Positions 1,478 to 22,553 of a stretch of DNA of 40,000 nucleotides are shown here, piece after piece. Positions within the stretch are counted from its first letter, which is position 1, and every line of letters begins with the position of its first letter. Made by a program: the position numbers and the translations under genes. The notes beneath the pieces are model-generated. The model saw only the letters and a program-made list of their open reading frames with translations. It was not told the DNA's origin and did not search any database. The DNA comes from an uncultured Planctomycetota bacterium (GTDB lineage: Bacteria; Planctomycetota; Planctomycetia; Pirellulales; Lacipirellulaceae): contig CAVRBU010000002.1 of NCBI GenBank assembly GCA_963719315.1, positions 1,526,433 through 1,566,432 on the forward strand. Reading direction: 5' to 3'.

Positions 1478-1598
1478 ATTCGCACTACTATACCGTGCGG
1501 CGCGGCATCGTACAGGAACCCGAAAATAGTGGCCTCTCGGATTCCATCCCGAATAATGGCTGGACGTGGCCACGCCCCGCCCGACAATGCACTACACC

Positions 1599-2569
1599 AT
1601 GACGCTTTTTGGAGTTCTCAACGTTGACAAACCGGCCGGGCTCACATCGCGCGACGCCGTCGATCGCGTTGAGCGACTAGTCCAGCCTGCGAGGGCTGGC
1701 CATGCCGGTACGCTCGATCCGCTAGCAACCGGCGTCCTGGTAATTTGCGTGGGGCAGGCAACTCGGCTGATCCAATATGTTCAGCGGATGCCAAAGACTT
1801 ACCTAGCCACGTTTTTGCTCGGCCAGACCAGCGAAACGGACGATCTCGAAGGCCAACTCACGCCGGTCGCCGCAGCAACCGAGCCGACACGAGAGGCGGT
1901 CGAACGAGCGCTGCCCCAATTCATCGGCGATATCCAGCAGCAACCGCCGATCCACTCGGCCATCAAGCTTGCCGGCCGCCGTGCGTACCAACTTGCGCGC
2001 GCGGCGCGGAGGTCGAACTACCGCCGCGCACCGTCACGATTCACAAGATCATGGTGCGGCGATATGACTATCCCCAACTGGAAGTCGATGTCGAGTGTGG
2101 CAGCGGCACGTATATTCGTGCGCTTGGTCGCGACTTAGGCGCTGCCCTCGGCACAGGAGCTTTGATGTCCAAACTCGAGCGAACGTCGATCGGCGCTTTT
2201 AATGTTGAAGAGGCCATTCAGATCGATGAGTTGACCGCCGAAACGCTCTCACGACAACTGCAGCCCACGCTCGCGGCCGTAGCCAATTTGCCGCGCGTTA
2301 CGCTCACTGAAGCCCAACTTCTCGAAGTTCGTAACGGCCGGCCGATCCTAGCGGCATGGCTTTGTTCGGAACCCTCTCCATTTGGGAGAAGGCAGGTCGC
2401 TCAGGACTCGCTGTGGCGAGGCGGGAGCACCTTGGATGCCAGCCATCGGCCCTCTGGCGACCTCGCAGAGTTGGCCGCCGTCGATGCAGCCGGCAGTCTC
2501 GCCGCCATCCTTTTCGAAAAGCGGCCGGGCGAACTCTGGCCCCGGTTGAACTTTAGCCGATCGTCATGA
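1599..2569 (+). pseudogene. truB: tRNA pseudouridine(55) synthase TruB, interrupted by a 1-nt frameshift near 1995-2011 (possible assembly error)
   Basis: The N-terminal part (LNVDKPAGLTS, HAGTLDPLATGVL, PPIHSAIKLAGRRAYQLARA) is in the frame of ORF 1566-2138. The continuation (GAEVELPPRTVTIHK, GSGTYIRALGRDLG, C-terminal PUA-like part) is in the frame of ORF 1745-2569. The switch lies in gcgcgcgcggcgcgg. Confidence 0.88.
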
Positions 2570-8056: not shown

Positions 8057-9684
8057 TCACTCAGCCGCGTCCCACCACCAAGCTTCCGCCGCTAATTCTT
8101 TCGGCGGAGGTGCCGTTCGCTCGATCGCGACTCCTGTACTATCCGTCGCGCGTGCTTCCTTCAATACATCGCTGGGCGCGACCATCACACCGCCACTCAC
8201 GCCGGCTAGAATCGTCCGCTGATTGATCACGCGATGATTGATGACGGTCTCCACCTCGCGGGGCACGTTGCCGTGCGGCAATCGCAATTGAGTTCCGTTC
8301 GCGAATATCGTTGGCTTCCAACCGACTTTTTCCGCCAGTCTGTCGCTCTGGATAATAGCCGCCGCCATGGCCAAATCAAACATATTTCTTAGCTCCCCGT
8401 ACACCGGATACTTTTGGGAAAGCTCGCCGAAATGGGCCGTGAACGACTCGGCAAACTGGCGATTGAGCGGATCGCTGTGGCCCGTATGCACGCGCTGGCC
8501 TTGCTCGGCCAGCATCTCGTTTTCGCTGAGCACTCCCACGCCTTGGCCAACTAACTCAAACGCGTCGTTCGCCTCCGACCGCGCGATCGTGTCGTATTTC
8601 AACGTGAACCACCACCGCAGCACCGACATCGCGGGCGGCGATTCGCCGTGCCGCAAGTGGATCGAACTCAAGTAGCTCTCAACGCCGTCCACGCCCTCGG
8701 CCAGGCCCATGCCGATCAGCTTCATGTGATAATCGGCTTCCACCAGAATTCTGGCGACGCGGCTTGCCGGGTCGATACCGAAGATTTCGATGTCCTGTCG
8801 GCCGACCGTGTCGCGCAAATCACTGAGCCACTTCTTCCTTTGCCCCGGCTCGAGCGGCTTCTGGCTCGACGACGCCAAAAACGCTTGCGTCTTGGCCAGC
8901 GATGCTTGCCGCGGATTGATCGAACAGCCAAAGTGGCTGTTCGCCGCGTCCGGTCCGCGCCGCAGCAACACGAGCAGATCATCGAGCCGCACGACCGGTT
9001 CAAGCGTCTTCTTGGAAACGATGCGACCATCGTCATCAACTTTCCAATCACCCGCCGGGCCGGCGAGCACCAAATCCCCCGACTCCGGATACGCAAACAC
9101 ATATTTCACGCGTTGCAAGCCGGCGAGCGTAAGCATCGCAGGGTCCAGCGGTTTGTGCGCCGCTTGCCGCGCGCGATCTCGCGCTCCAGTCGCGGCAACG
9201 ACACAAAGCGTAGCGTGCTGGCCTTCGATGCCAGTCGTGGTTGGTTCGCGTACGGAGGCGGGGCCGCGCCACGCTTTGCGGTGAGATCGCTCGCGCCTTG
9301 TGTTTTGGATTTGAGCCGCAACATTCCGCCCGCGTCCACGAGCACGCCGTTGGGGAATGGTCGAATATCGGCCGAACCGCCGCCGTTCTCCATCCACGTA
9401 TCGGTGGCAACGGTGGATTGAATCAAATCGATAAGCGAATCGAAATCGGCATTCGCCGCGGCGCCTCGCTGCGGAGTTCCATTCTGTCCCATGTTGCCAT
9501 TTGCATTCGGACCGAACAGGAACCCGTTCTGCTGACCGCCAGGTAGGATCGCCGCGTTGGGAATGTTGGGACCGTTCTGCCCAGGAGCGTTATTGTTGAA
9601 TTGAGCAGACGAAGTGGCGCTGAGAAGTAGTGCGAAGCCGCCGGCGATGGCGAAATGCCAAGGTGAGAAGTAATTGGTGCCCAT
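8057..9684 (-). pseudogene. Secreted DUF1598-like planctomycete protein, frameshifted near 9160-9180 (possible assembly error)
   Basis: The N-terminal part (signal peptide, ADFDSLIDLIQSTVATDTW, LRFVSLPRLEREIAR) is ORF 9106-9684. The continuation (QAAHKPLDPAMLTLAGLQRVKYVFAYPESGDLVLAGP... to 8057) is the frame of ORF 8057-9397. The junction lies in gcgcgcgg. The family name is from memory. Confidence 0.7.
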
Positions 9685-10040
9685 GGCTGCCCTCTGTGGA
9701 TTTCTGCCCTAATCGTAATCCATTGGGTTCTTTATTCCCATAATTTGGGTAGAATTAGCGACATGACGGTCCTTTTTGTTGGAGAGCCAGGCAATCTGGG
9801 AATCCGTCGAGATACTGGCTCCCTCCGGTTTTCAAGATGCAAACTGGGCTAAGTCAGGATAGAATAAGCCACGCGAACACTGAGGATAGTTAGACCCCCA
9901 CCCAAACCGCTCGCTGCCCTTGGCGGGCTCGATTCCCTCCCAAGTGGCCGCCAGCCGGTTGCTCGATTCGCCACTCCCACCAAGTTTTGCAGGCGTTTTT
10001 TACTATCTCGTTGTCGCAGCGAAAGGTGCTCCCACACCCG

Positions 10041-12764
10041 ATGCACTCCGACAGGCCATTTCTGTTGCGGGCTGTATGCGTCCTGCTGTGGGGCGCGTAC
10101 GTTGCTCGACCCGCACCCGCCGCCGAGCCAGCTCCTCCGGCTCCGTCAGCGTCGTCGCCGCAAGGCGTCGAGTTCTTCGAGGCCCGTATCCGCCCGGTAC
10201 TCGTCGAAAAGTGCTACAGTTGCCACTCTGCCCAGGCCAAAGTGTTGAAGGCCGGCCTGCGGCTGGATACAGCTGAACGAATGCGGGCCGGCGGCGAATC
10301 GGGCCCCGTAATCGTGCCCAATAAGCCCGCCGACAGCCCGCTGATTGCGGCTCTAAAGTACGAGTCAAGCGAGATGCCGCCCAGCGGCAGGCTGCCGAAT
10401 GCTGTGATCCACGATTTCGAGACGTGGATTTCGCTCGGCGCGCCCGACCCCCGCGCCGATGCGGCTGCCCCAGACACGAAGAACGCGAAACCCGATCCCC
10501 GCGAGCATTGGGCGTACAAGCAACCGCAAAAGTCGGCGCCGCCGCAAATCGCTCACGCCGCCACCGCTCGCTGCGATCTCGATCGCTTCATTCTGGCGAG
10601 ACTCGAATCCAAAAATCTGTCGCCATCGCCCCAAGCTCCGCCCCGCGCCTTGCTGCGGCGTGTGTATTACGATTTAGTCGGCATGCCACCCACGGCCGAA
10701 GAAATAGATCAATTCGCCTCCGACCCCAGCGACGCCCGCTATGAAGCGATCGTCGATCGGCTCCTCGCGTCGCCGCGCTTCGGCGAGCGTTGGGCTCGCC
10801 ACTGGCTGGATGTGGCCCGATATGCCGACACGAAGGGTTACGTCTTCCAGGAGGACCGCAGCTACAAGGGCGGTTACGCGTACCGCGATTGGGTCATCGC
10901 CAGCTTCAACGCCGATCGGCCGTTCGACAAATTCATTATCGCCCAAATCGCCGGCGACCAAATGGATGATCCATCCTGGGCGCCGGCCTCCGGTTTTCTG
11001 ACGCTCGGCCGCCGCTTCCTGAACGCACAACCCGATATCATCAACGACCGCATCGATGTCGTTTCGCGCGGCATCATGGGCCTCACTGTCGCTTGCGCTC
11101 GTTGCCACGACCACAAGTACGATCCGATCAGCGCCGCCGACTACTACGCTCTGTACGGTGTATTTGCCAGCACGACCGAAAAACCGCACGACGATGCGCC
11201 GCCGGAATTGGTCGATGCCGACAAGCCGTATGACCCGTATATCTTCCTTCGCGGCGATCCAGGCAACCACGGCCCGAACACCGAGAGACGATTCCTCACG
11301 TGCCTCTCGCCCGATAACAAACCCGCTCCGTTCACGCACGGCAGCGGCCGACGCGAGTTGGCCGACGCTCTTACCAGCCGCGAGAACCCGCTAACCGCGC
11401 GTGTGTGGGTGAACCGAGTCTGGGGCCATCTATTCGGAAAGGGCCTCGTGGAAACGCCGAGCGACTTCGGCGTTCGCGGCACGCCGCCGACGCATCCGGA
11501 ACTGCTCGATACGCTCGTCTGCGATTTGATGGACGATGGCTGGTCCACGAAGCGACTCATTCGCCGGCTTGTGCTTTCGGCCACGTATCGTCAATCGAGT
11601 GACGCGCGCGCCGATGGCGAAGCCATCGACTCGGAAAATCGCCTCTTGTGGCGCGCCAATCGCCGCCGGCTCGATCTGGAAGCACTCCGCGACTCGCTGC
11701 TCGCCGTCGCCGGTCGGCTGGACGAGAAAATGGGCGGCCCCTCCGTCTCGATCACCGACGCTCCCTTCTCCACTCGCCGGAGCGTCTATGGCTATATCGA
11801 ACGCCAAAATCTGCCCGCCTTCTTCCGCACATTCGATTTTGCGAACCCAAATACGCACACGCCCGAACGTCCGCTGACAACCGCCCCTCAACAAGCTCTG
11901 TTCCTAATGAACAGCCCCTTCACAATCGAACAAGCCAGCTTCCTTTCGACGCGTAGCGAACTTGAGCCCCAACCCAGTGTGCCTGGGGTCGAGCCGCAGG
12001 CGAGCCCCCAGGATGTAGCCACTTCATCTCCAATTCAAAACGCCGCAGCCTCCCGCGTCCGCCGCATTAATCGCCTCTTCCGCTACGCGTTCGGTCGCGA
12101 GCCGTCGATCGACGAATTGACCGACGCCCTCGAATTCGTCGATCGTGGCGAACCCCCGCAATTCGCAACAATCACGCACCAACTCGCCTGGCAATTCGGC
12201 TGGGGCTCGTACGACGAGCAGGCGCACGACGTGCAATTTCAACCTCTGCCAGTGTTCGCCAATGGTGTTTGGCAGGGCGAAGCGAAGCTGCCCGACGCCA
12301 AGCTCGGTTGGGTCATGCTCAATGCCGCGGGCGGACACCCAGGCGACGCCGCCCATTCCTCTATCCGCCGTTGGGTCGCGCCCGCGGCCGGCACGCTCCG
12401 CATTGAAGGCTTGCTCGCCCACGCGTTCGACAAGGGCGACGGCGTCCGCGGTCGCATCATCGCCAGCCGCGTCGGCGTGATCGGATCCTGGGATGTGTTC
12501 CACAAAGAAGAGGTAATCAATCCACCGCAGTTCGCCGTCCAACGGGGCGACACGATCGACTTCATCGTCGATCCGCGCGCGACCGTCGACACAGATACCT
12601 ACAATTGGACGCTCACCATGCGACTAAAGACTTCGGACAAAGAACCAGAACAAGTCTGGCAATCGGCAGGCGATTTCCACGGGCCGATCACGCCGCCGCT
12701 CTCCCGCTGGCAGCAACTGGCCCAAGTGCTCCTAATGAGCAATGAGTTTGTATATGTGGACTAG
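10041..12764 (+). CDS. PSD1-type protein: planctomycete cytochrome c domain + DUF1549 + DUF1553
   Basis: Signal peptide from the ATG at 10041, heme motif CYSCHS, DUF1549-like DRFILARLESKNLSPSP...LLRRVYYDLVGMPPT, DUF1553-like CARCHDHKYDPI. Confidence 0.88.
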   Translation: MHSDRPFLLRAVCVLLWGAYVARPAPAAEPAPPAPSASSPQGVEFFEARIRPVLVEKCYSCHSAQAKVLKAGLRLDTAERMRAGGESGPVIVPNKPADSPLIAALKYESSEMPPSGRLPNAVIHDFETWISLGAPDPRADAAAPDTKNAKPDPREHWAYKQPQKSAPPQIAHAATARCDLDRFILARLESKNLSPSPQAPPRALLRRVYYDLVGMPPTAEEIDQFASDPSDARYEAIVDRLLASPRFGERWARHWLDVARYADTKGYVFQEDRSYKGGYAYRDWVIASFNADRPFDKFIIAQIAGDQMDDPSWAPASGFLTLGRRFLNAQPDIINDRIDVVSRGIMGLTVACARCHDHKYDPISAADYYALYGVFASTTEKPHDDAPPELVDADKPYDPYIFLRGDPGNHGPNTERRFLTCLSPDNKPAPFTHGSGRRELADALTSRENPLTARVWVNRVWGHLFGKGLVETPSDFGVRGTPPTHPELLDTLVCDLMDDGWSTKRLIRRLVLSATYRQSSDARADGEAIDSENRLLWRANRRRLDLEALRDSLLAVAGRLDEKMGGPSVSITDAPFSTRRSVYGYIERQNLPAFFRTFDFANPNTHTPERPLTTAPQQALFLMNSPFTIEQASFLSTRSELEPQPSVPGVEPQASPQDVATSSPIQNAAASRVRRINRLFRYAFGREPSIDELTDALEFVDRGEPPQFATITHQLAWQFGWGSYDEQAHDVQFQPLPVFANGVWQGEAKLPDAKLGWVMLNAAGGHPGDAAHSSIRRWVAPAAGTLRIEGLLAHAFDKGDGVRGRIIASRVGVIGSWDVFHKEEVINPPQFAVQRGDTIDFIVDPRATVDTDTYNWTLTMRLKTSDKEPEQVWQSAGDFHGPITPPLSRWQQLAQVLLMSNEFVYVD

Positions 12765-12840: not shown

Positions 12841-14277
12841 ATGTCCCATACATTTCAACTAGACCATTTGGCCCTCACCCGCCGCGAACTCCTCCAGCGT
12901 TGCGGCATGGGCTTCGGTGCGCTCGCTCTGGGTAATCTGATCGTTGGCGCTCAGACCGCATCCGCCGCGAGTACGAACCCGCTTTTGCCGCACGCGCCCC
13001 ATTTTCCGGCCAAGGCCAAACACGTCATTCACCTGTTCATGAACGGCGGGCCGTCCCACGTCGATACGTTCGACCCCAAGCCAATGCTCGACAAATACGC
13101 CGGCAAGCCGCTTCCCGGCGGCACGCTGCCGACCGAGCGACCGACCGGGGCTGCCCTCCCGTCGCCGTTTAAGTTCCGCAAGTATGGCCAAAGCGGCATC
13201 GAAGTCAGCGACATTTTCCATAACGTCGGGAACTCGATCGACGATATCGCCGTCATCCGCTCCATGCATGCCGACATTCCGAGCCACGAGGCGTCGCTGT
13301 TGCTGATGAATTGCGGCGACGCCCGGCAGATTCGCCCCAGTCTCGGCTCCTGGCTGTGCTACGGCCTGGGGAGCGAGAACGAGAACCTGCCGGCGTTTGT
13401 GGCGATGTGCCCGCATGGATATCCAATTCAAGAAACGCAAAACTGGCAATCCGGTTTCTTGCCGGGTGTGTACGAAGGATCGTACGTCGATACACAGCAC
13501 ACCAAGATCGAACAGCTCATCGAGCACATCCGCAACGGCCGACTCTCGCTGCCGCAGCAGCGCGAACAACTCGATTTGCTGGAACGATTCAACGCCCGCC
13601 ATGCCCAGGCACGGCACGACGATGCGGCACTGGAGGCTCGCATCCGTTCGTTCGAGCTCGGTTTCCGCATGCAGACCGAGGCGGCCGAAGCATTCGACGT
13701 CCGCCGCGAGCCGCAGCACATCCGCGACATGTACGGCCCCGGCGTGCAGGCCCGGCAACTACTCATTGCCCGCCGGCTGGTCGAGCGGGGCGTGCGGTTC
13801 GTTCAGTTGTGGCACGGCGCCGGCCAGCCCTGGGATAGCCACGACGACCTCGAAGTTCGCCACCGCGAGCTCGCCGGACAATGCGACCAAGCAATCGGCG
13901 CCTTGCTGGTGGATTTGAAGCAGCGGGGCCTGCTCGATGAGACACTCGTCATTTGGGGCGGCGAATTCGGCCGCACGCCTTCGGTCGAACTGCCGAAGGC
14001 CGGCTCAAATGCGGGCAAGATCAACGGCCGTGACCACAACCACCACGGCTTCACGACCTGGCTCGCCGGCGGCGGCGTCCGCGGTGGTTACGTACACGGC
14101 GCAACGGACGACCTGGGTTTCAAAGCAGTCGAAAAGCGGGTCCATGTGCACGATCTCCACGCCACGATTCTGCACCTCCTGGGCTTCGACCACGAAAAGT
14201 TCACCTACCGCTACGCCGGCCGCGACTTCCGCCTGACCGATGTGGAAGGGCACGTCGTGCGGGAACTCATTGCGTAG
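12841..14277 (+). CDS. DUF1501 domain protein (sulfatase-fold, Tat signal)
   Basis: TRRELLQRCGMGFGALALG twin-arginine leader, then GGEFGRTP and NGRDHNHHGF motifs. This is the usual downstream partner of DUF1549/DUF1553 genes. Confidence 0.9.
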   Translation: MSHTFQLDHLALTRRELLQRCGMGFGALALGNLIVGAQTASAASTNPLLPHAPHFPAKAKHVIHLFMNGGPSHVDTFDPKPMLDKYAGKPLPGGTLPTERPTGAALPSPFKFRKYGQSGIEVSDIFHNVGNSIDDIAVIRSMHADIPSHEASLLLMNCGDARQIRPSLGSWLCYGLGSENENLPAFVAMCPHGYPIQETQNWQSGFLPGVYEGSYVDTQHTKIEQLIEHIRNGRLSLPQQREQLDLLERFNARHAQARHDDAALEARIRSFELGFRMQTEAAEAFDVRREPQHIRDMYGPGVQARQLLIARRLVERGVRFVQLWHGAGQPWDSHDDLEVRHRELAGQCDQAIGALLVDLKQRGLLDETLVIWGGEFGRTPSVELPKAGSNAGKINGRDHNHHGFTTWLAGGGVRGGYVHGATDDLGFKAVEKRVHVHDLHATILHLLGFDHEKFTYRYAGRDFRLTDVEGHVVRELIA

Positions 14278-14356: not shown

Positions 14357-14601
14357 AGGGTCGTTCGACGACCCTTTCCCGCGGCTGCGGTCTTAGGCCC
14401 GCCGTTTACGGCGGGTCGATGAGGTCCCGAAACACGATGGGGAGCCCCATTCATGGGGCTTCTCGCATTACTTTACGGCTGAAGCCATCGCCGCGAGAAG
14501 CCCTGTAAACAGGGCTTGGTGCTGCTCCGTTGACCCTCACCAACCCGTCGTCAACGACGGGCCTAAGACCACCTTCGGTGGAAAGAGCCGTGAACGGCTC
14601 T
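14357..14601. repeat. 245-bp nested dyad-symmetric element made of local tetraloop hairpins
   Basis: The arms mirror around about 14479. Hairpins are at 14357-75, 14398-415 (cccgccg-ttta-cggcggg), 14443-60 (agcccca-ttca-tggggct), 14498-517 (aagccctg-taaa-cagggctt), 14544-61 (cccgtcg-tcaa-cgacggg) and 14584-601 (agagccg-tgaa-cggctct). Long-range pairs are ggtcttaggccc 14389-400 with gggcctaagacc 14559-70, and ggcttctcgc 14457-66 with gcgagaagcc 14493-502. Confidence 0.85.
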
Positions 14602-14658
14602 GCAAGTCGCTAAACTGTTGCGCACTCCGAGTTTCGGAGAAGCTCGGCTGCATCCAAC

Positions 14659-14705
14659 GAAAAAAACGACTCCCGCCGCTAGGACAGGAGTCGCTTGTTT
14701 TTTAT
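14659..14705. terminator. Bidirectional intrinsic terminator between convergent genes
   Basis: A-tract, stem cgactcc (14667-73) / ggagtcg (14687-93), then cttgtttttta T-tract. Confidence 0.65.
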
Positions 14706-14803
14706 CGTGCTCGCTTGCTGACCGCGGGATGCGGGTCGCAAGCTCGTCACGTTTTCTATTGTCGAGTTGTCACGCGCGGAGCTCTCGGCGCCGCGCCGCC
14801 AAC

Positions 14804-15324
14804 TTACTTGCCGCAACCGCAACTCGGTTGTTCGCAACCGCAGCTTTGCTCACAGCAGCTCGGCTCGCAGCAGCAGCTCTTGTGGCAGCGGAACATGCCA
14901 CACAAGCCGTCGAGCAAGCAGCAGCGATGACGGCACGGCGAGCAGCAGTTCGATTCGCAACCGCAGCTCGGCTCACAAGCACAACTCTGCTCGCATGCGC
15001 AGCTCTGTTCGCAGCAGCAGCTCGGCTCGCAGCAGCTCTTGTGGCAACGGAACATGCCACACAGGCCATCGAGCAAGCAGCAGCGGCGGGGGCAGCAGCT
15101 GGTTTGGCGGCCGCAGCTCGGTTCGCAAGCGCAGCTCTGCTCGCAAGCACAGCTCTGCTCGCAAGCGCAGCTCTGCTCGCAACGCAGCTTTGTTCACAAC
15201 CACAGCTCGGCTCACAACAGCCGTTGCCGTGACCGCACAACAGACCGAAGAACGCATTCGCGCTTCCGGCACTGCTGAGCACCAGGGCGACGCTCAGCGT
15301 CGCAAAGGCAACACAACGTTTCAT
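14804..15324 (-). CDS. Secreted hyper-cysteine-rich repeat protein (CCEPSC/CEQSC repeats); reading frame needs a 1-nt correction near 15178-15187
   Basis: Signal peptide MKRCVAFATLSVALVLSSAGSANA, then FFGLLCGHGNGCCEPSCGCEQSC in the frame of ORF 14770-15324. The identical motif family continues in the frame of ORF 14804-15076 to CGCGK-stop at 14804. AGGAG lies upstream of the ATG. Confidence 0.7.
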
Positions 15325-15654
15325 GGGAGGGCTCCTGACATAACGGGTGGGAAAAATGGGCGGAGGGTCTCGCGCCGCCGGAGGGTAAGAGATCGGAGAT
15401 GGAAGGGCGCGTCGCCCCGTCCTCCGACCTCGGACCTCTAACCTAGGCAGGCCGAGGCCACGACGTGGTAAACGTCGTTAGGTGCTATCGTCGCGGTCCG
15501 AATGCTAGCTGAAGAATCCTCGACGAAATGCGCGATTTCCCAGGTGTAACGCTTGAACCGGTCGGCACATGGCGGTTATGTGGATTGCGTCGCTTCGTTC
15601 AATTGGTCCGTGCAAGTTCGGAGTTCGTGTGGCGGCATACAGTTGCCTGGCCCG

Positions 15655-18417
15655 TTACGACGATCGTTTGCCGCGTGGCCGCGCAGCCGGCATCAATGGG
15701 GCTGTTAGCTGCGCGTACAGCTTGAACAGGAATTCGACGCGGTTGCGTTCGTTGGCAAACGGCTGCGAGCGGTAGCAACGGTCCACGGCACGGTCGAGCT
15801 TGGCATGGGCCTTGGCCAAGCCGGCGGGCATTGCAAGGGGGTCGTAGAGGTCCGCGAGCGTAGCATCGGGGTGCGCGGCGCGGGCATCGAGCACACCCTG
15901 CGCCGCGTCCTCGACGGCCGCACGTTTCGCATCGGTTACATCCTGTGGCCAGGGGAAGTTGTTGTAGACAAGTTTCGCGGAATAGCGGAAATCCGATTTG
16001 AGCCGCCCCGCCACATGCCGGACCCAGGCCATGTGCATCGTCGAGCTGAGAATGCCGAAGTGAAAGAGCTTTGCACCAGTAATCGTTAGGCAGAGATTAC
16101 TTGCAATTGTATTGCTTTTCATGAAGCCTATGGGAATGTACCTTCGACGTTCGGAAGAGACAGAAGGAACTATTAGATAGGGGCGATCCTTATGACTAAC
16201 GAACGCAAACAAACTGGGAGTGTCCGCAAGGCCTCGAGTGACCGGTCGCTTGCTTTTTAGCCGAAATGCTCGGACGGCATTAATGCGCCCCATAATCAGA
16301 GGTGAGGATCGCAACTCATTGGGACTGGCATCCTTCAACCACAAACACCACCGTGCTATTGAATTGATAAATTCACGAGATCCTAAGAAAGGACGAATCA
16401 GCCGTTACAATTCGGGGTGCTCGCTCAGGATGCATTGCCGCTCTTCCGGAGATAGGATTAAATGGCCGCCGTCGATTGGTTGATTCCCAAATTGCATTTC
16501 CGGGACCGCGCTTAAGGGGGTTGAACGGTTCAGCACCGTCACACTTGGTCCTTCGATAAGATAAGGATTAATGGTGCTAACAAGGCTTGTGGTCGGTTCG
16601 CCGCGGAGCGACTCATAGTCGAAAAGTTTTTTCTGCCGTTGGTTACCAACTCCAAAGCCGATGATGACGACATGAACATGTGCTTTGCCGCGAGCCTCAC
16701 TCTCCCAAGCAAACGTGCGATGGGCGAAAAAAACTGAGATTCGATAGCGCTGCAGTAACTCCGGCCACAGCACACCGACCTGTTCACCCTGCGAAATCGA
16801 ATTTGTCGAGACAAACGCCACGGTGATCGGGGTTCCCTGGATATAAAGTGCAGCCTTGAAATACCAACCAGTGACATAATCCAATAGTCCACCGTTCTTC
16901 ACTCCATCCGCGACCTCTGAAATCTCTTGTCGCTGCGGATTTGTCTGAAACTTGGCGCCCACGAACGGCGGATTACCGAGAACATGCGTGCATTTCTCTG
17001 CCGGCAGCACGTCGTTCCAGTCGATTCGCAGGGCGTTGCCGTGGTGAATATGCGGACTTTTGTGGAGCGGCAAGCGGACATAATACTCGCCGAATTCCTC
17101 GCTGACGCGCTGGTTCATCTGGTGGTCCATCAGCCACATTGCCATTTCGGCGATTCGGACGGGCCACTCTTCGACCTCGATGCCGTACATTTGATCGACA
17201 TCGAGCTTGAGCAAAGTGTTGATGTCGAGCCGTTTCTGCATGTTCGGCTTCTTGAAAAGCCGTCGAAGTAACTCCAATTCCAATATTCGCAGTTCGCGAT
17301 ACGACACGACCAGGAAATTGCCGCAGCCGCAGGCGGGATCGAGCAGCCGCATTTTGGCCATGCGTTCGTGCAGCGCACTCAGCTTGCGGGCGTCGCTACC
17401 CGCTTTTTCCAGGTCCGCTTTGAGGTCGTCGAGAAACAGCGGACCGATGACTTTGAGGATGTCGCGCTCGCTGGTGTAGTGGGCGCCGATTTGCCGACGT
17501 TCGCGGGGCTCCATCACGGCCTGAAACAACGCTCCGAATACGGCGGGCGAGATGCGGCTCCAGTCGAAGCGGGTGCAAGCCAGCAGCCGATTTCGCATGT
17601 CGCTGTTGAACTCGGCGAAGCTCAGCGATTCGACGTACAGTTCGCCGTTGACGTAGGGCAGGGCTGCCAGTTCTTCGAGCAGGTTTTTCTGCCGCTTGTC
17701 CTTGGCCGTGTTTAGCACCTGGAACAGCCGGGCGAGTTGCGGCCCCAGGTCGGAGCCATCGAGAGCGGTGTGGTTTTCGAGAAACAGCGTAAACGCGTCG
17801 CGGTCGAAAATGCCGGTGTCTTCGGCGAACAAGCAGAACAAGATGCGGACGAGCAGCCGTTCCAATTCGTGGCCCGAGTACCCGCCGCTTTCCAAGGCGT
17901 CGTGCAGATCACCCATGATCCGCACGGCCTTGATGTTGATCGGATCTTCCGGTTCGAGCTTCTGTTTGCGATGTCCGGCGATGAACCCGAAGTGGTTCAC
18001 GTGCAGATGAAATTCGGACAGCGGGAATTCAATCGAGGTTTCATCGATCAAATCGTGCAGCGCAATGCGGGCGAAATCGGAGACGATCACGTATTGCGGC
18101 GCTTCGTCGCCGCGGCCTTCACGCGAGAGGTCTTGGATATAGTCGATCGCCTGCGCATGGGCTTTGCCGAGGTCTTCGCCGCGACTCTTGTGCTCGGCGA
18201 TGAGAATCGCCTTCCAAAAGAGGTCGATGAAGCTGTAGTGGCCGCGGATGTTCTTGACCGGCTCCTCGAAGCTGGCCACATTGCGGCGGGTGAGGCCGAA
18301 GACCTTGAAGAACTCGTCCCAGAACGTCTTGGCCTCGGCGTGCTCGCGCGACTCGGCCGCCCACTCGCGGGAGAACGCCAGGGCGCGGCTGCGAATTTCG
18401 TTCCAGGAAATGGGCAA
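15655..18417 (-). pseudogene. MmeI-family type IIL restriction-modification enzyme, interrupted by in-frame TAA at 16405-16407
   Basis: N-terminal nuclease motif FIDLFWKAILIAEHKSRG, MTase motif I LLDPACGCGNFLV, motif IV NPPF. The same frame continues after the stop as RLIRPFLGSREFINSIARWCLWLKDASP...RLKSDFRYSAKLVYNNFPWP. The total of about 920 codons matches MmeI-size proteins. Confidence 0.85.
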
Positions 18418-19947: not shown

Positions 19948-22327
19948 TCACAAACGATTTACGTCCGGTTTTTCGGCCAGACTGATCTTTGGCGGTAGCG
20001 CACTTGTTGCCACGATCTCGACCAACAACTGCCGAATATCGAACTTGTGTTTGGCAAAACATTCCTGCAGTTCGTGCAAGCGATTCGGTCCATAGGCTAG
20101 TATCGGCTGTTTTACCGTGTGATGGAACAGCTGCTTCACGAAGGCGGTTTGCGATTCGTCGCTGGAAGCCACAAATTCGGCCAAATCCTTCATGCCTTTG
20201 AACTTTTCGACCTCGCCCGATTGCGTCAAATAACTGCCCGACGCGTCGATCGGTTTGTCCCTCTCCAGCTCGCGGTAGCGACCGATGGCGTCAAAATTCT
20301 CCATCGTAAACCCCAGCGGATTGATCATCCCGTGGCAACCCTGGCACGCCTCGGGCTGGGTTTGCAACGCCACACGGTCGCGAGTGCTGAGCTCCGCATG
20401 CACGTTCGGCGGCAATGGCGCGACCGCCTGGGCAGGCGGACGCAGCACGCGACCGAGTACGCTTCTAGAAACGAATACTCCGCGATGAATAGGCGAGCTC
20501 GCGCTCGTGTACGCCAGGCTGGCAAGCAGATACGGATGCGACAACACGCCGGCGCGGCGTTCCGGTTCGAAGTCGACTTTCTGAAACGGCGCGTCGGCCG
20601 GCAATGGCACGCCGTACACCTTCGCGAGCCGTCCGTTGAACCAGAACTCGTCGCCCAGTAGAAACTGCCGGTAGTCGGACGAGCCGCCGTCGAGCATCTC
20701 GTCGAGCGACAATTCGAGCGACGTCCGCAAATCCGATGCAACCTCCGGCGTGAACTCTGGGTACAACATCGGGTCTTTGGCCAAGTCCCGCGGCTGTGAA
20801 ATCTTCAGCCAGCCCAACAAGAAGTCGCGGACCTTCGAATGTGTTCGCAAGTCGGGTAGCATGCGTTCAAGTTGCCGAACTACCTGCGCGGTTGGCGAGC
20901 CTGCCTTTCGCGGCCGCCTTCAGTAGTTCACGGTCGGGCAGCGAATCCCACATTCCGAACGACATTCGCGCGGCCACGTCGTACGGATCAGCCGCATCGC
21001 CATCGATTTCGCGATACAGAAACCGCGGTGACTTGAGCGCCAGCAGCACCACTCGCTTCACGCCCCCGAGCAGGTCGGGAGCCGCCTCGAATTGGCGTTG
21101 GACGTAAAACTTCTGCTGCTCATCCGAAAGCGGGCGGAGGAATGCGCGCTCGACGAATTGCAGGCAGAATTTGCGGAGGAATGGCTCGCCCTTCGCGTCG
21201 TCCGGGTTCGCGCCTGTCAATTGCCGCACGTGTTGGGCCACATAACCGGCCGTCTCGATCGCGGCCTCGGTCGTGGCCTCATCCCAGGCCTTGGAAATCG
21301 AAGTCCCTCGCTCGTACCCCACGCTCCGGTCATCCGGCGGGAATCGCGTTTCGAGCACGAATACTTCGGGGGCCTCCTCAATGGACAAGTAGTGCCCTGT
21401 AATCACTTCCAGCGTGTGGTTCGGACGTTTCCATTCCAGCGAGATGGAAGTGTTGGGGTTGGGTTTGAACTTCTCCTTATAGTCTTTGTTCTTTTTGCTC
21501 ACGCCTTGCTGGCCGCGGGAAAACTCGAGCTTGATCGGGTACGCTCGCCCACCCAGCAATCGGATTTCGGCGCGGTGCTCGGTTTCGTCGCCCGATTGAA
21601 CCCAAGCGTCGATCAAGGGGACCGGAGAATCGTTGATCGTCAATCGAGTCGCATGTTCGGTCCGCACGACGAATTCATACGTGCCGGTATCGGGCGCCAA
21701 CACGGACCCTACCCACTCGATGTAAAACGTCTGCTTTTCGAGCTTGTCGGGATCGGGGGTCGATTCGCCCCAATTGAAGTGCACGTCGGGATCGGTTCGT
21801 TCCAGCTTCAGCGCAGCCGGCTTGTATTCGCGGGCGGCGAAATACTTGCCGTGCAGTCCGCGTTCCGCTCCCCACTTCGTTGGTTCGCGGAAGCTGCCGA
21901 TCAAATCGGCGACCGCGTTTTGATATTGCCGCACAGTGAGCCGCGAGAGTTCGATGCGGACCGGCTTGTTGCGGACCCGAGCATCGACCGAGTAGAAAGC
22001 GTCGTAGATGTACGCCGCCACCTTGGCCGCATCGTTGGCGGAGCACTTCGTGTCCGCATCATCCGGCATTGTTTCGTGGATCAGCTTCGTAAGCTGCGCG
22101 ACCGATTTGTCGCCGGCCAGCGGGTCGGGGTAGCTGTCCTCGACCCCTTCGCCCGAATTGCCGTGGCACCGCGCACACTGATCGCGATAGATATGCTCGC
22201 CCGTGGGCTCCGCGGCGACAGAGTTCCCAGCGGCGCAAATCGCGGCACAATACAGCAGCACCACAGTAACGCTTTGCAACCGAATTCGCAGATTTTTCTG
22301 CGGCAATTGCATGGCAATTCTCGACAT
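19948..22327 (-). pseudogene. Cytochrome c + DUF1587/DUF1592/DUF1595/DUF1588/DUF1585-type protein, frameshifted near 20883-20891 (possible assembly error)
   Basis: The N-terminal ORF (start MSRIAMQL at 22327; CARCHGNSGEG heme motif; RQYQNAVADLIG) ends ...GRLANRAGSSAT*. The +1 frame reads (A)QVVRQLERMLPDLRTHSKVRDFLLGWLK and runs into ORF 19948-20862 (SSPIHRGVFVSRSVLG, CQGCHGMINPLGF). Confidence 0.82.
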
Positions 22328-22431
22328 CGTCAGAGCGGGCCAGCAAGGCGGGAAGCGGAACCGGCACTGGTTCAGGTGGGAAGCTGAATTATAAACGGCA
22401 TTCCCGGCAAATCCAAGCCGCAGGACGAATG

Positions 22432-22553
22432 GGTAGTGTCCTAATTTGCGGCACAACAAGCTTGTAGCACGGACTTCAGTCCGTGATTCTCGTACGGACT
22501 GAAGTCCGTGTTGCAAAGTTCCGGTCCGAACGGTGCCAAATTAGGACACCACC
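22432..22553. mobile_element. 122-bp MITE-like element with 17-bp TIRs and 8-bp target-site duplication
   Basis: TIRs are ggtagtgtcctaatttg (22432-48) and caaattaggacaccacc (22537-53), matching 16/17. They are flanked directly by GACGAATG at 22424-31 and 22554-61. The interior holds acaagcttgt plus hairpins cacggac-ttca-gtccgtg and acggac-tgaa-gtccgt. No ORF. Confidence 0.75.

Follow-up and report, generated by a model that had tools for sequence, protein, structure and literature searches.

Does a cysteine-rich reading frame that is broken by a single base belong to a working gene, and what would the product of such a gene do? The question is raised by a locus on the minus strand of a 40,000-nucleotide (nt) stretch of DNA from an uncultured Planctomycetota bacterium (contig CAVRBU010000002.1; hereafter, the window). 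A previous interpretation of these letters without database searches (the sequence-only reading) had described there a Sec signal peptide followed by a Cys-rich sequence, whose motif family resumes in a frame offset by one nt. We found both elements when the minus strand of 14500-15700 was read together with the list of open reading frames (ORFs) and a three-frame translation: the ATG at 15324-15322 opens a Sec-type signal peptide (MKRCVAFATLSVALVLSSAGSANA), followed by FFGLLCGHGNGCCEPSCGCEQSC, and the Cys-rich frame, shifted by one base from 15183/15182, continues from 15182 to a TAA at 14806-14804. Very probably the locus is a monocistronic gene, equipped with a terminator and a conserved upstream region of its own, and it encodes a Sec-exported preprotein of 173 amino acids (aa) that belongs to an uncharacterised family of Pirellulales type.

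The cysteine-rich reading frame and its one-base break

The junction (15189-15176) reads AGCTGCG/TTGCGAG, against AGCTGCGCTTGCGAG in the following three 18-nt repeats, and when the DNA is aligned with three orthologous loci (L008, L003 and L004), the window shows a gap of one column that falls precisely on 15183/15182. The first repeat is thus one base short in comparison with the next three, as had been proposed. Insertion of one C gives the 173-aa preprotein, with a mature part of 149 aa that comprises 47 Cys (31.5%), values that agree with the earlier hand count of about 173 aa and about 47 Cys in about 150 mature residues. By tblastn, residues 49-173 of this repaired protein were recovered with 100% identity at 15181-14807.

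The mature repaired protein contains 9 C-x-C-E-x-S hexads, 10 CxC (4 CGC and 6 CAC), 11 CC and 17 C-x3-C. The hexad is the dominant repeat, and CCEPS occurs 3 times in the repaired protein. In the DNA, Tandem Repeats Finder reported an 18-nt period across 15112-15217 (5.9 copies, 85% matches). Aromatic residues are few (4 of 149) and none of them lies inside the Cys blocks, which are also free of Lys and Arg; the net charge is about -6. The sequence-only reading had divided the protein in three units of about 53 aa: the threefold build stands, but the layout is better described as three Cys blocks with a 14-residue linker of the same sequence in each of the two gaps between them (LLDGLCGMFRCHKS, residues 84-97 and 137-150). 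By inspection, the N-terminus has the features of a preprotein for Sec and signal peptidase I, namely an n-region with K2 and R3, the core CVAFATLSVALVL, the cleavage context SAGSANA/FF and no lipobox.

For comparison we gathered 21 family loci by genome and metagenome scans and exact look-ups (L001-L009, L011-L013 and L015-L023); the genome scan was based on a 7-sequence alignment, as a 15-sequence alignment lacked a conserved stretch. The sequence-only reading had attributed the break to a missing base, and homologues with a continuous frame do exist: the Cys frame runs unbroken from the signal peptide to the stop in 12 out of 12 loci with contig names of short-read style or from isolate genomes (L001, L004, L006-L009, L011-L013, L015/L016, L017 and L018; L007 is truncated by the contig end). 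The frame is likewise unbroken in two more 'MFD' loci, L002 and L005. Frameshifts were found in the relatives L003, an 'MFD' metagenome-assembled genome, and L019-L023 (ENA ERZ250395xx, with 'contig_N' names), and a Nanopore/Flye origin of these assemblies was inferred from their names. Genes that adjoin the five ERZ loci (DUF1501, PSD1 and GH43) are fragmented as well, and the break positions differ from locus to locus.

The window itself presents the same picture. Its proteins all map to one NCBI/ENA contig of 2,153,761 bp, which by its size is of long-read type, and two further one-base frameshifts were found within the 40 kb. An exact look-up with the DUF1501 neighbour retrieved no record from another assembly of the strain. 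The first splits truB (1566-2569, plus strand) near 2000-2030, in the context GCGCGCGG, into the ORFs 1566-2138 and 1745-2569, with TruB_N positions 2-117 in the first ORF and positions 110-149 plus TruB_C_2 in the next. Since truB is a housekeeping gene, its disruption points to assembly indel errors. The second lies near 20865-20880 in a planctomycete gene with PA14, cytochrome c, DUF1592 and DUF1588 domains (19948-22516, minus strand), whose PSD4 domain is divided between the ORFs 20867-22516 and 19948-20862.

The codons on the far side of the break bear no mark of decay. Downstream, 125 codons follow without a stop, although a single mutation would be enough to turn any TGY, GAR or CAR codon into one. 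Compared with L008, the closest orthologue (77% identity), the gene differs 14, 11 and 43 times on codon positions 1, 2 and 3 of the Cys frame, respectively, with 36 synonymous and 21 non-synonymous codon differences, a pattern that is characteristic of purifying selection on the Cys frame. The ratio of synonymous to non-synonymous differences is 28:15 downstream of the break and 8:6 upstream, so that the downstream part fares no worse. Taken together, the intact short-read loci, the restriction of breaks to long-read assemblies, their varied positions, the other frameshifts of the window and the absence of decay make an assembly error the most likely explanation. We consider the base missing at 15183/15182 to be most probably a consensus error of a long-read assembly. 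As this error is the most likely source of the break, the organism probably makes the full-length protein.

Two observations weigh against this explanation, and both favour the alternative that the frameshift is real and the gene a freshly inactivated pseudogene in the window strain. The break site is not in a homopolymer, and the adjoining MmeI-like gene carries a nonsense substitution (an in-frame TAA that did not arise by an indel), so that real gene inactivation also occurs in the region. The alternative also has in its favour that the sequence as given is frameshifted, one base short of the continuous frame that characterises the family. The product of such a pseudogene would consist of the signal peptide, 23 native residues and an Ala/Arg-rich nonsense tail (a 184-aa ORF, 14770-15324). 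We regard this alternative as unlikely in view of three one-base frameshifts within 40 kb, one of them in truB, a contig of long-read type, family frameshifts that are confined to long-read assemblies, and neither further lesions nor relaxed selection 3' of the break.

A functional break, either by programmed -1 ribosomal frameshifting or by slipped-strand phase variation, would be suggested by the location of the site within a tandem 18-nt repeat array. Slippage of an 18-nt unit, however, preserves the reading frame, and at C-GTT-GCG there is neither a homopolymer or short-unit tract nor a slippery heptamer of the type X XXY YYZ. Intact orthologues are unbroken at that position and other assemblies are broken elsewhere. 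We therefore rejected programmed frameshifting and phase variation, both of which are extremely improbable.

We also rejected three other ORFs as coding sequences, namely the Ala/Arg-rich one of 184 aa and two on the antisense strand (14618-15232 and 14767-15441), each longer than 200 aa: they are by-products of the codon composition of the repeat, and the pattern of differences fits the Cys frame. The GC-rich repeat is open in all frames and on both strands (window, 14618-15441 on the plus strand and 14770-15324 on the minus strand; L015, 7707-8453 on the minus strand; and the proteins P0007, P0010, P0012, P0014 and P0016). Public gene calls at the family loci include antisense ORFs, leader-extended ORFs and wrong-frame tails, and the 184-aa and 90-aa ORFs of the window are absent from the protein collection. 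With all frames open and long-read assemblies breaking the ORF, the family is probably under-annotated.

A Pirellulales-type family of exported poly-cysteine proteins

The sequence-only reading had proposed a BLASTP and profile search with the reconstructed protein, and this search was productive. The repaired protein retrieved 34 homologues, with E values down to 5e-38, among 5.8 billion clustered proteins. In a search of 1.84 billion proteins with a profile of 15 sequences, 290 cluster representatives had E <= 1e-3, and for 95 of these the value was 1e-10 or lower. Two RefSeq members from cultured strains are annotated as 'keratin-like protein', WP_145109294.1 (Botrimarina mediterranea) and WP_153555410.1 (Roseimaritima sediminicola). 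The Botrimarina mediterranea protein in our collection (P0017) matched the repaired protein with E = 9.5e-10, 45% identity and 98% query coverage, and tblastn against the Botrimarina locus (L015) gave 48% identity over residues 3-171. These RefSeq proteins are homologous to that of the window over the full length (45-48% identity for the Botrimarina protein), with the same architecture and from the same order; the differences are an apparent one-base break in the frame of the window copy and the lack of the upstream motif at the Botrimarina locus. The named homologues are from Pirellulales and the neighbours of the gene in the window are of the PSCyt/DUF1501/DUF1598 kind, both in agreement with the Planctomycetota origin that the sequence-only reading had presumed; the range of the family, as so far seen, is limited to Planctomycetota of Pirellulales type.

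Searches of Pfam (E <= 10), NCBIfam and PDB sequences with the repaired protein and eight relatives gave no family match, with one chance match of 10 bits. AlphaFold2 with the 15-sequence alignment predicted no fold (mean predicted local distance difference test score, pLDDT, 43; predicted template modelling score, pTM, 0.16). We found nothing on the family in the literature on keratin-like, metallothionein, Cys-rich or cystine-envelope proteins of planctomycetes or Pirellulales, in which only the papers on YTV cell-wall proteins were relevant. The earlier statement that no characterised bacterial family resembles this protein is thus correct as far as Pfam, NCBIfam and PDB are concerned, but RefSeq already holds the family under the name 'keratin-like protein'. 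The window gene is one more copy of a family that databases already contain, for which Pfam and NCBIfam have no family model.

The architecture was derived from alignments and from a survey of 124 members, with proteins of about 150-190 aa. The common plan comprises a signal peptide that ends in A-x-A and leads into F/G-L-F-G, three acidic Cys blocks, two linkers and a C-terminus SCGCG-x, and the repaired protein of the window fits it from end to end. Little or no variation is seen at the A-x-A/F-F-G junction in the family alignments. The Cys blocks are built of C-G/A/C-C-E-x-(x)-P/Q-S/T/A units. The linkers are Cys-poor, basic, amphipathic and often His-rich (e.g. GLLxxLFxRHxH, RHHHHD and GLLARLRAK), with His runs in many relatives (HRHNH, RHHHHD and HHKKH). 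Among the 124 members, two is the commonest number of Cys-free inner segments and CGCG the commonest C-terminal tetrapeptide.

The number of Cys is variable: in 12 full-length loci the mature proteins contain 20-36% Cys and total counts, some odd and some even, lie between 29 and 63. Close relatives differ by the gain and loss of hexads, as seen in indels of 6 and 12 codons in comparison with L008. Such variable odd or even numbers, together with the stepwise gain and loss of hexads, speak against a fold fixed by disulfide bonds. Each examined locus has one copy of the gene, AGGAG and ATG are unchanged across the aligned loci, and the terminator is conserved.

A sister subfamily from metagenomes (P0019, P0025-P0031 and P0085) has an N-terminus of the form MKWN..QSFG..LLDRMLG and carries in addition a conserved tail at the C-terminus, PAPxxDPSAxLxxxRRxIQxxxVR, possibly a signal for sorting or anchoring.

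The upstream region and the gene neighbourhood

The conservation of an upstream motif and leader is a new result of this analysis. Over the approximately 190 nt upstream of the gene, the mean column identity across 11 loci is 81%, compared with protein identities of 50-77%; the conserved upstream region was observed at L001-L009, L011-L013, L017 and L019-L023. The motif AGCTAGCA-N12-CGATAGC is invariant and occurs once per locus, 150-190 nt 5' of the ATG, with a chance expectation of 0.03 in the window. When metagenomes were scanned with the motif extended by N7-GACG, we obtained 8 matches: 6 were located upstream of Cys-rich family genes and 2 were chance matches in unrelated ORFs. Apart from these two, the motif was found only ahead of members of the family. 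A consensus scan of the locus detected no sigma-70-like promoter. The motif is absent from the Botrimarina locus, which keeps the C-rich tract and the AGGAG.

The leader between motif and start codon is predicted to be structured. Its minimum free energy of folding, compared with shuffled controls, gave z = -2.4 for the window and z = -4.3 for L017, which belongs to a variant leader class (L005, L013, L017, L019 and L020) that retains a long central hairpin with a different sequence; the ribosome-binding region is predicted to be paired. The RNAalifold consensus comprises three or four hairpins, with one-sided changes only and no pair changed on both sides. An Rfam cmscan of the locus at E <= 10 returned only chance-level matches of microRNA or internal-ribosome-entry-site type, far below the gathering scores. 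With one-sided changes only and no Rfam family, an RNA element in the leader is plausible but not proven. Downstream of the gene, sequences similar to the hairpin and T-run of the window are found 3' of the stop in the homologous loci, and this terminator-like hairpin would make the gene monocistronic.

Table 1. Features of the cysteine-rich locus in the window, with positions, strand and the basis of each assignment. CDS, coding sequence.
Feature	Position	Strand	Basis or remarks
Motif AGCTAGCA-N12-CGATAGC, candidate promoter/operator	15484-15510	minus	Two TAGCA elements, starts 20 nt apart; identical in window and L001-L006
Hairpin-rich leader	15325-15483	minus	Conservation across 11 loci; RNAalifold
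Leader hairpin 1	15460-15479	minus	RNA folding
Central hairpin arms	15419-15438 (GAGGTCCGAGGTCGGAGGAC) and 15389-15406 (CCTTCCATCTCCGATCTC)	minus	GGAG-rich 5' arm, CUCC-rich 3' arm
C-rich tract	15345-15356	minus	Kept even in Botrimarina (L015) and L018
Shine-Dalgarno AGGAG	15332-15336	minus	Kept even in L015 and L018
Predicted Sec-type signal peptide MKRCVAFATLSVALVLSSAGSANA, codons 1-24	15253-15324	minus	Basic n-region, 13-residue hydrophobic core, A-x-A at -3/-1, predicted cut after ANA, no lipobox Cys at +1
CDS segment A, ATG frame: codons 1-47 and base 1 of codon 48	15183-15324	minus	Sequence read, translation
Frame-break site, one C missing	15182-15183	minus	Comparison with next 18-nt repeats and orthologues; one-column gap against L008, L003 and L004
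CDS segment B, one-base offset: remainder of codon 48 to K173, and TAA 14806-14804	14804-15182	minus	Translation, tblastn
Linker 1 LLDGLCGMFRCHKS, residues 84-97, between Cys blocks 1 and 2	15035-15076	minus	Matches basic amphipathic G-L-L/F-x-x-L-F-x-R/K-H segments of relatives
Linker 2 LLDGLCGMFRCHKS, residues 137-150, between Cys blocks 2 and 3	14876-14917	minus	Same linker type as linker 1
Terminator-like hairpin and T-run, about 110 nt past the stop	14664-14696	minus	14-pair stem, then TTTTTTTT

In the window, the Cys-rich gene is convergent with a DUF1501 gene (12841-14277), which itself follows a PSCyt1/PSCyt2/PSD1 gene (9987-12764), with a DUF1598 gene beyond (8057-9397). The order DUF1598, PSCyt-PSD1, DUF1501 and Cys-rich gene was found again in L017 and L020, and a convergent DUF1501 gene is also present in L003, L005, L008 and L023. 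In L018 a DUF1598 gene comes after the Cys-rich gene, with one 88-aa ORF between them. The neighbours in the Botrimarina locus are serS and VTT/ApbE genes. The recurring order looks like inherited gene order rather than a functional cassette.

Upstream of the Cys-rich gene in the window lies an MmeI-like type IIG restriction-modification gene (15655-18417, minus strand), interrupted by the in-frame TAA at 16405-16407 (SEHPEL, stop, RLIRPFLGSREFIN). As this stop arose by substitution and not by an indel, the gene is probably a real pseudogene. At other loci, a YceI-family gene and a hypothetical gene (about 234-287 aa) are located 5' of the Cys-rich gene (L017, 6151-7717; L019, 1796-3545; L023, 804-2237). 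The MmeI-like pseudogene occupies the position of this pair in the window, which suggests an insertion there.

The immediate neighbours in the window are thus the convergent DUF1501 gene and the nonsense-disrupted MmeI-like gene, in line with the earlier observation that genes for thiol-disulfide chemistry, transport or maturation do not adjoin it; across the examined loci, no maturation gene is conserved beside the Cys-rich gene. In one sub-lineage, an ArsR/SmtB-like helix-turn-helix gene is found 3' of the Cys-rich gene on the same strand (L001, 8961-14146; L021, 3953-5213; L022, 3927-4833), and in L001 it is followed directly by a MexE/OqxB-like multidrug RND pump.

Possible functions of the exported cysteine array

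Our first choice, tentative and somewhat less than evenly probable, is that the protein serves as an exported, disordered, metallothionein-like thiolate array that binds soft metals. After export and cleavage of the signal peptide it would remain largely unfolded, and its three acidic C-x-C-E-x-S blocks with their CC pairs would form a thiolate array of high capacity. Soft metal ions (Cu(I), Zn, Cd and similar) could then be bound outside the cytoplasm in clusters like those of metallothioneins. The FFGLL segment at the N-terminus may act with the two linkers, which are basic and amphipathic, to organise the acidic blocks or to hold them at the membrane or envelope, and the free variation in hexad number among relatives would tune the capacity. 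Expression would seemingly be kept under tight control by the promoter-proximal motif and the structured leader of about 160 nt, which is predicted to pair with the ribosome-binding site. The choice is based on the CxC and C-x3-C spacing, the aromatic-free blocks, the lack of a fixed Cys number or fold, the His-rich linkers and the signs of regulation.

Several known systems offer points of comparison. The spacing C-x-C-x3-C-x-C is that of the domains of plant type-1 metallothioneins and fungal Cu-metallothioneins. With metallothioneins in general (plant type 1, fungal Cu-thioneins, modular ciliate metallothioneins and bacterial SmtA/BmtA) the window protein shares a Cys content of about 30%, the CxC, CC and C-x3-C spacing, blocks that are almost free of aromatic residues, the lack of a predicted metal-free fold, and a modular build with variable repeat number. 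It differs from them in that metallothioneins are small and cytosolic, and the window protein has 149 aa after a Sec-type signal peptide, is rich in Glu and carries basic amphipathic linkers. A precedent for an exported Cys-rich store of Cu(I) is Csp1 of methanotrophs. Csp1 is likewise exported and binds many Cu(I) ions on Cys thiolates, but it is a Tat-exported, folded four-helix bundle with 13 Cys; the window protein is of Sec type, with no predicted helical bundle and 47 Cys.

Other findings speak against the thiolate array. The periplasm is normally oxidising, and many of the thiols may be disulfides rather than free ligands. A Glu-rich exported protein of 150 residues is atypical for metallothioneins, and the window protein has no metallothionein profile match (none in Pfam at E <= 10, NCBIfam or PDB). 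In the window and the annotated homologous loci, the surroundings of the gene include no conserved gene for a metal sensor, a metal transporter or thiol-redox chemistry. The ArsR-like gene of the one sub-lineage lacks the canonical CVC metal-sensing motif. Its L001 copy scores below the NCBIfam cut-offs, and the RND pump there belongs to the multidrug and not the heavy-metal type. We rejected a metal link through these two genes on those grounds, and also for the terminator and approximately 470 nt that separate the regulator from the Cys-rich gene in L001.

A close rival, possible though rather less than probable, is that the protein has a structural role in the envelope or extracellular matrix, where CC and CxC would form intermolecular disulfides, with its own copies or with other Cys-rich envelope proteins as partners, and so harden a proteinaceous layer, much as in hair, where ultra-high-sulfur keratin-associated proteins act in this way, and perhaps as in planctomycete cell walls through the Cys-rich YTV proteins. 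The signal peptide leads into an oxidising compartment, and variable odd or even Cys numbers without a predicted fold suit random cross-linking as well as metal clusters. Genes for very highly expressed surface proteins, too, typically have a strong AGGAG and a long stable leader. On the other hand, we found no anchor, sorting signal or lipobox, and cross-linking leaves unexplained both the Glu that follows nearly every CxC and the His-rich linkers; CxC and vicinal CC disulfides are, in addition, strained. No member has been reported from cell-wall proteomes, though Cys blocks without Lys or Arg are nearly invisible to tryptic mass spectrometry.

Two groups of structural proteins bear on the same rival. 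Mammalian high- and ultra-high-sulfur keratin-associated proteins (Keratin_B2) resemble the window protein in their very high Cys content, in repeats like CCxPS, to which CCEPSC is close in composition, and in being presumably unstructured before cross-linking. The window protein has no match to the corresponding Pfam profile at E <= 10, its hexad is C-x-C-E-x-S instead of the pentad CCxPx, and it is bacterial and exported, with no keratin partner. Judged from these comparisons, the likeness is one of convergent composition, not homology; the sequence-only reading, which had pointed to keratin-associated proteins and metallothioneins, was right on composition and Cys spacing, but not if homology is meant. 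Like the window protein, the YTV-domain cell-wall proteins of Planctomycetia (PF07639) belong to this phylum and are Cys-rich, exported and candidate envelope components. They are much larger, with another repeat, and the window protein has neither a YTV profile match, or any other in Pfam, nor the YTV tripeptide. Cys-rich YTV proteins in planctomycete wall preparations provide a precedent (PMC8567305, PMC12673574) and were detected there by mass spectrometry, unlike the Cys-rich family described here (Hieu 2008 and Mahajan 2020, as cited in PMC8567305).

An extracytoplasmic thiol-disulfide buffer, exchange catalyst or oxidant scavenger, in which C-G-C and C-A-C would cycle between dithiol and disulfide near the potential of protein disulfide isomerase (PDI), is improbable. 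The 10 CxC of the window protein, a number exceeded in relatives, would be in favour of such a role, as would the PDI-like potential of CGC: the tripeptide, for which E°' = -0.167 V, acts as a catalyst both in the formation of disulfides and in their isomerisation, and CXC peptides can replace PDI in yeast (bioRxiv 10.64898/2026.01.27.701630). No partner reductase or oxidase gene, however, is conserved nearby, and a catalyst needs no set of about 20 motif copies and would not tolerate their free gain and loss.

Less probable still is a precursor of several small Cys-rich peptides, e.g. antimicrobials, either of the type of ribosomally synthesised and post-translationally modified peptides (RiPPs) or released by proteolysis within the linker segments. 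The build of three modules with basic linkers, the abundance of both Ser and Cys, as in lanthipeptide cores, and the resemblance of the linkers to cationic amphipathic peptides would agree with it. The N-terminus, however, is a Sec signal peptide and not a RiPP leader, and no dehydratase, cyclase, radical-SAM maturase, dedicated protease or ABC exporter adjoins the gene at any locus examined; this lack of maturation genes makes a multi-peptide precursor very unlikely.

The family is unusual, testable and uncharacterised, and the window locus is an ordinary, probably mis-assembled copy of it. A practical lesson is that gene callers extend, shift or invert the ORF in a GC-rich repeat of this kind, and that long-read assemblies break it. 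Standard tryptic proteomics would miss a protein whose Cys blocks lack Lys and Arg, which may explain why the family has attracted no notice. With cultured carriers at hand (Botrimarina mediterranea and Roseimaritima sediminicola), the question of its function is directly testable.

More broadly, and still doubtful, these proteins may represent an unrecognised Pirellulales class of exported, disordered and modular poly-thiol proteins, an extracytoplasmic counterpart of metallothioneins or a CXC redox buffer for soft metals or oxidants in the enlarged periplasm. The class would be switched by a new cis-acting unit, composed of the AGCTAGCA-N12-CGATAGC operator and a leader of about 160 nt, which would block access to the ribosome-binding site and might respond to temperature, redox state, a metal or another ligand. 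If metal binding or redox buffering outside the cytoplasm is indeed the function, these would be among the most Cys-dense bacterial proteins known, and a new solution to the handling of metals or oxidants in a phylum whose envelope biology is debated. If the protein is instead a cross-linked component of the envelope, it would bear on the old observation that planctomycete walls are rich in protein.

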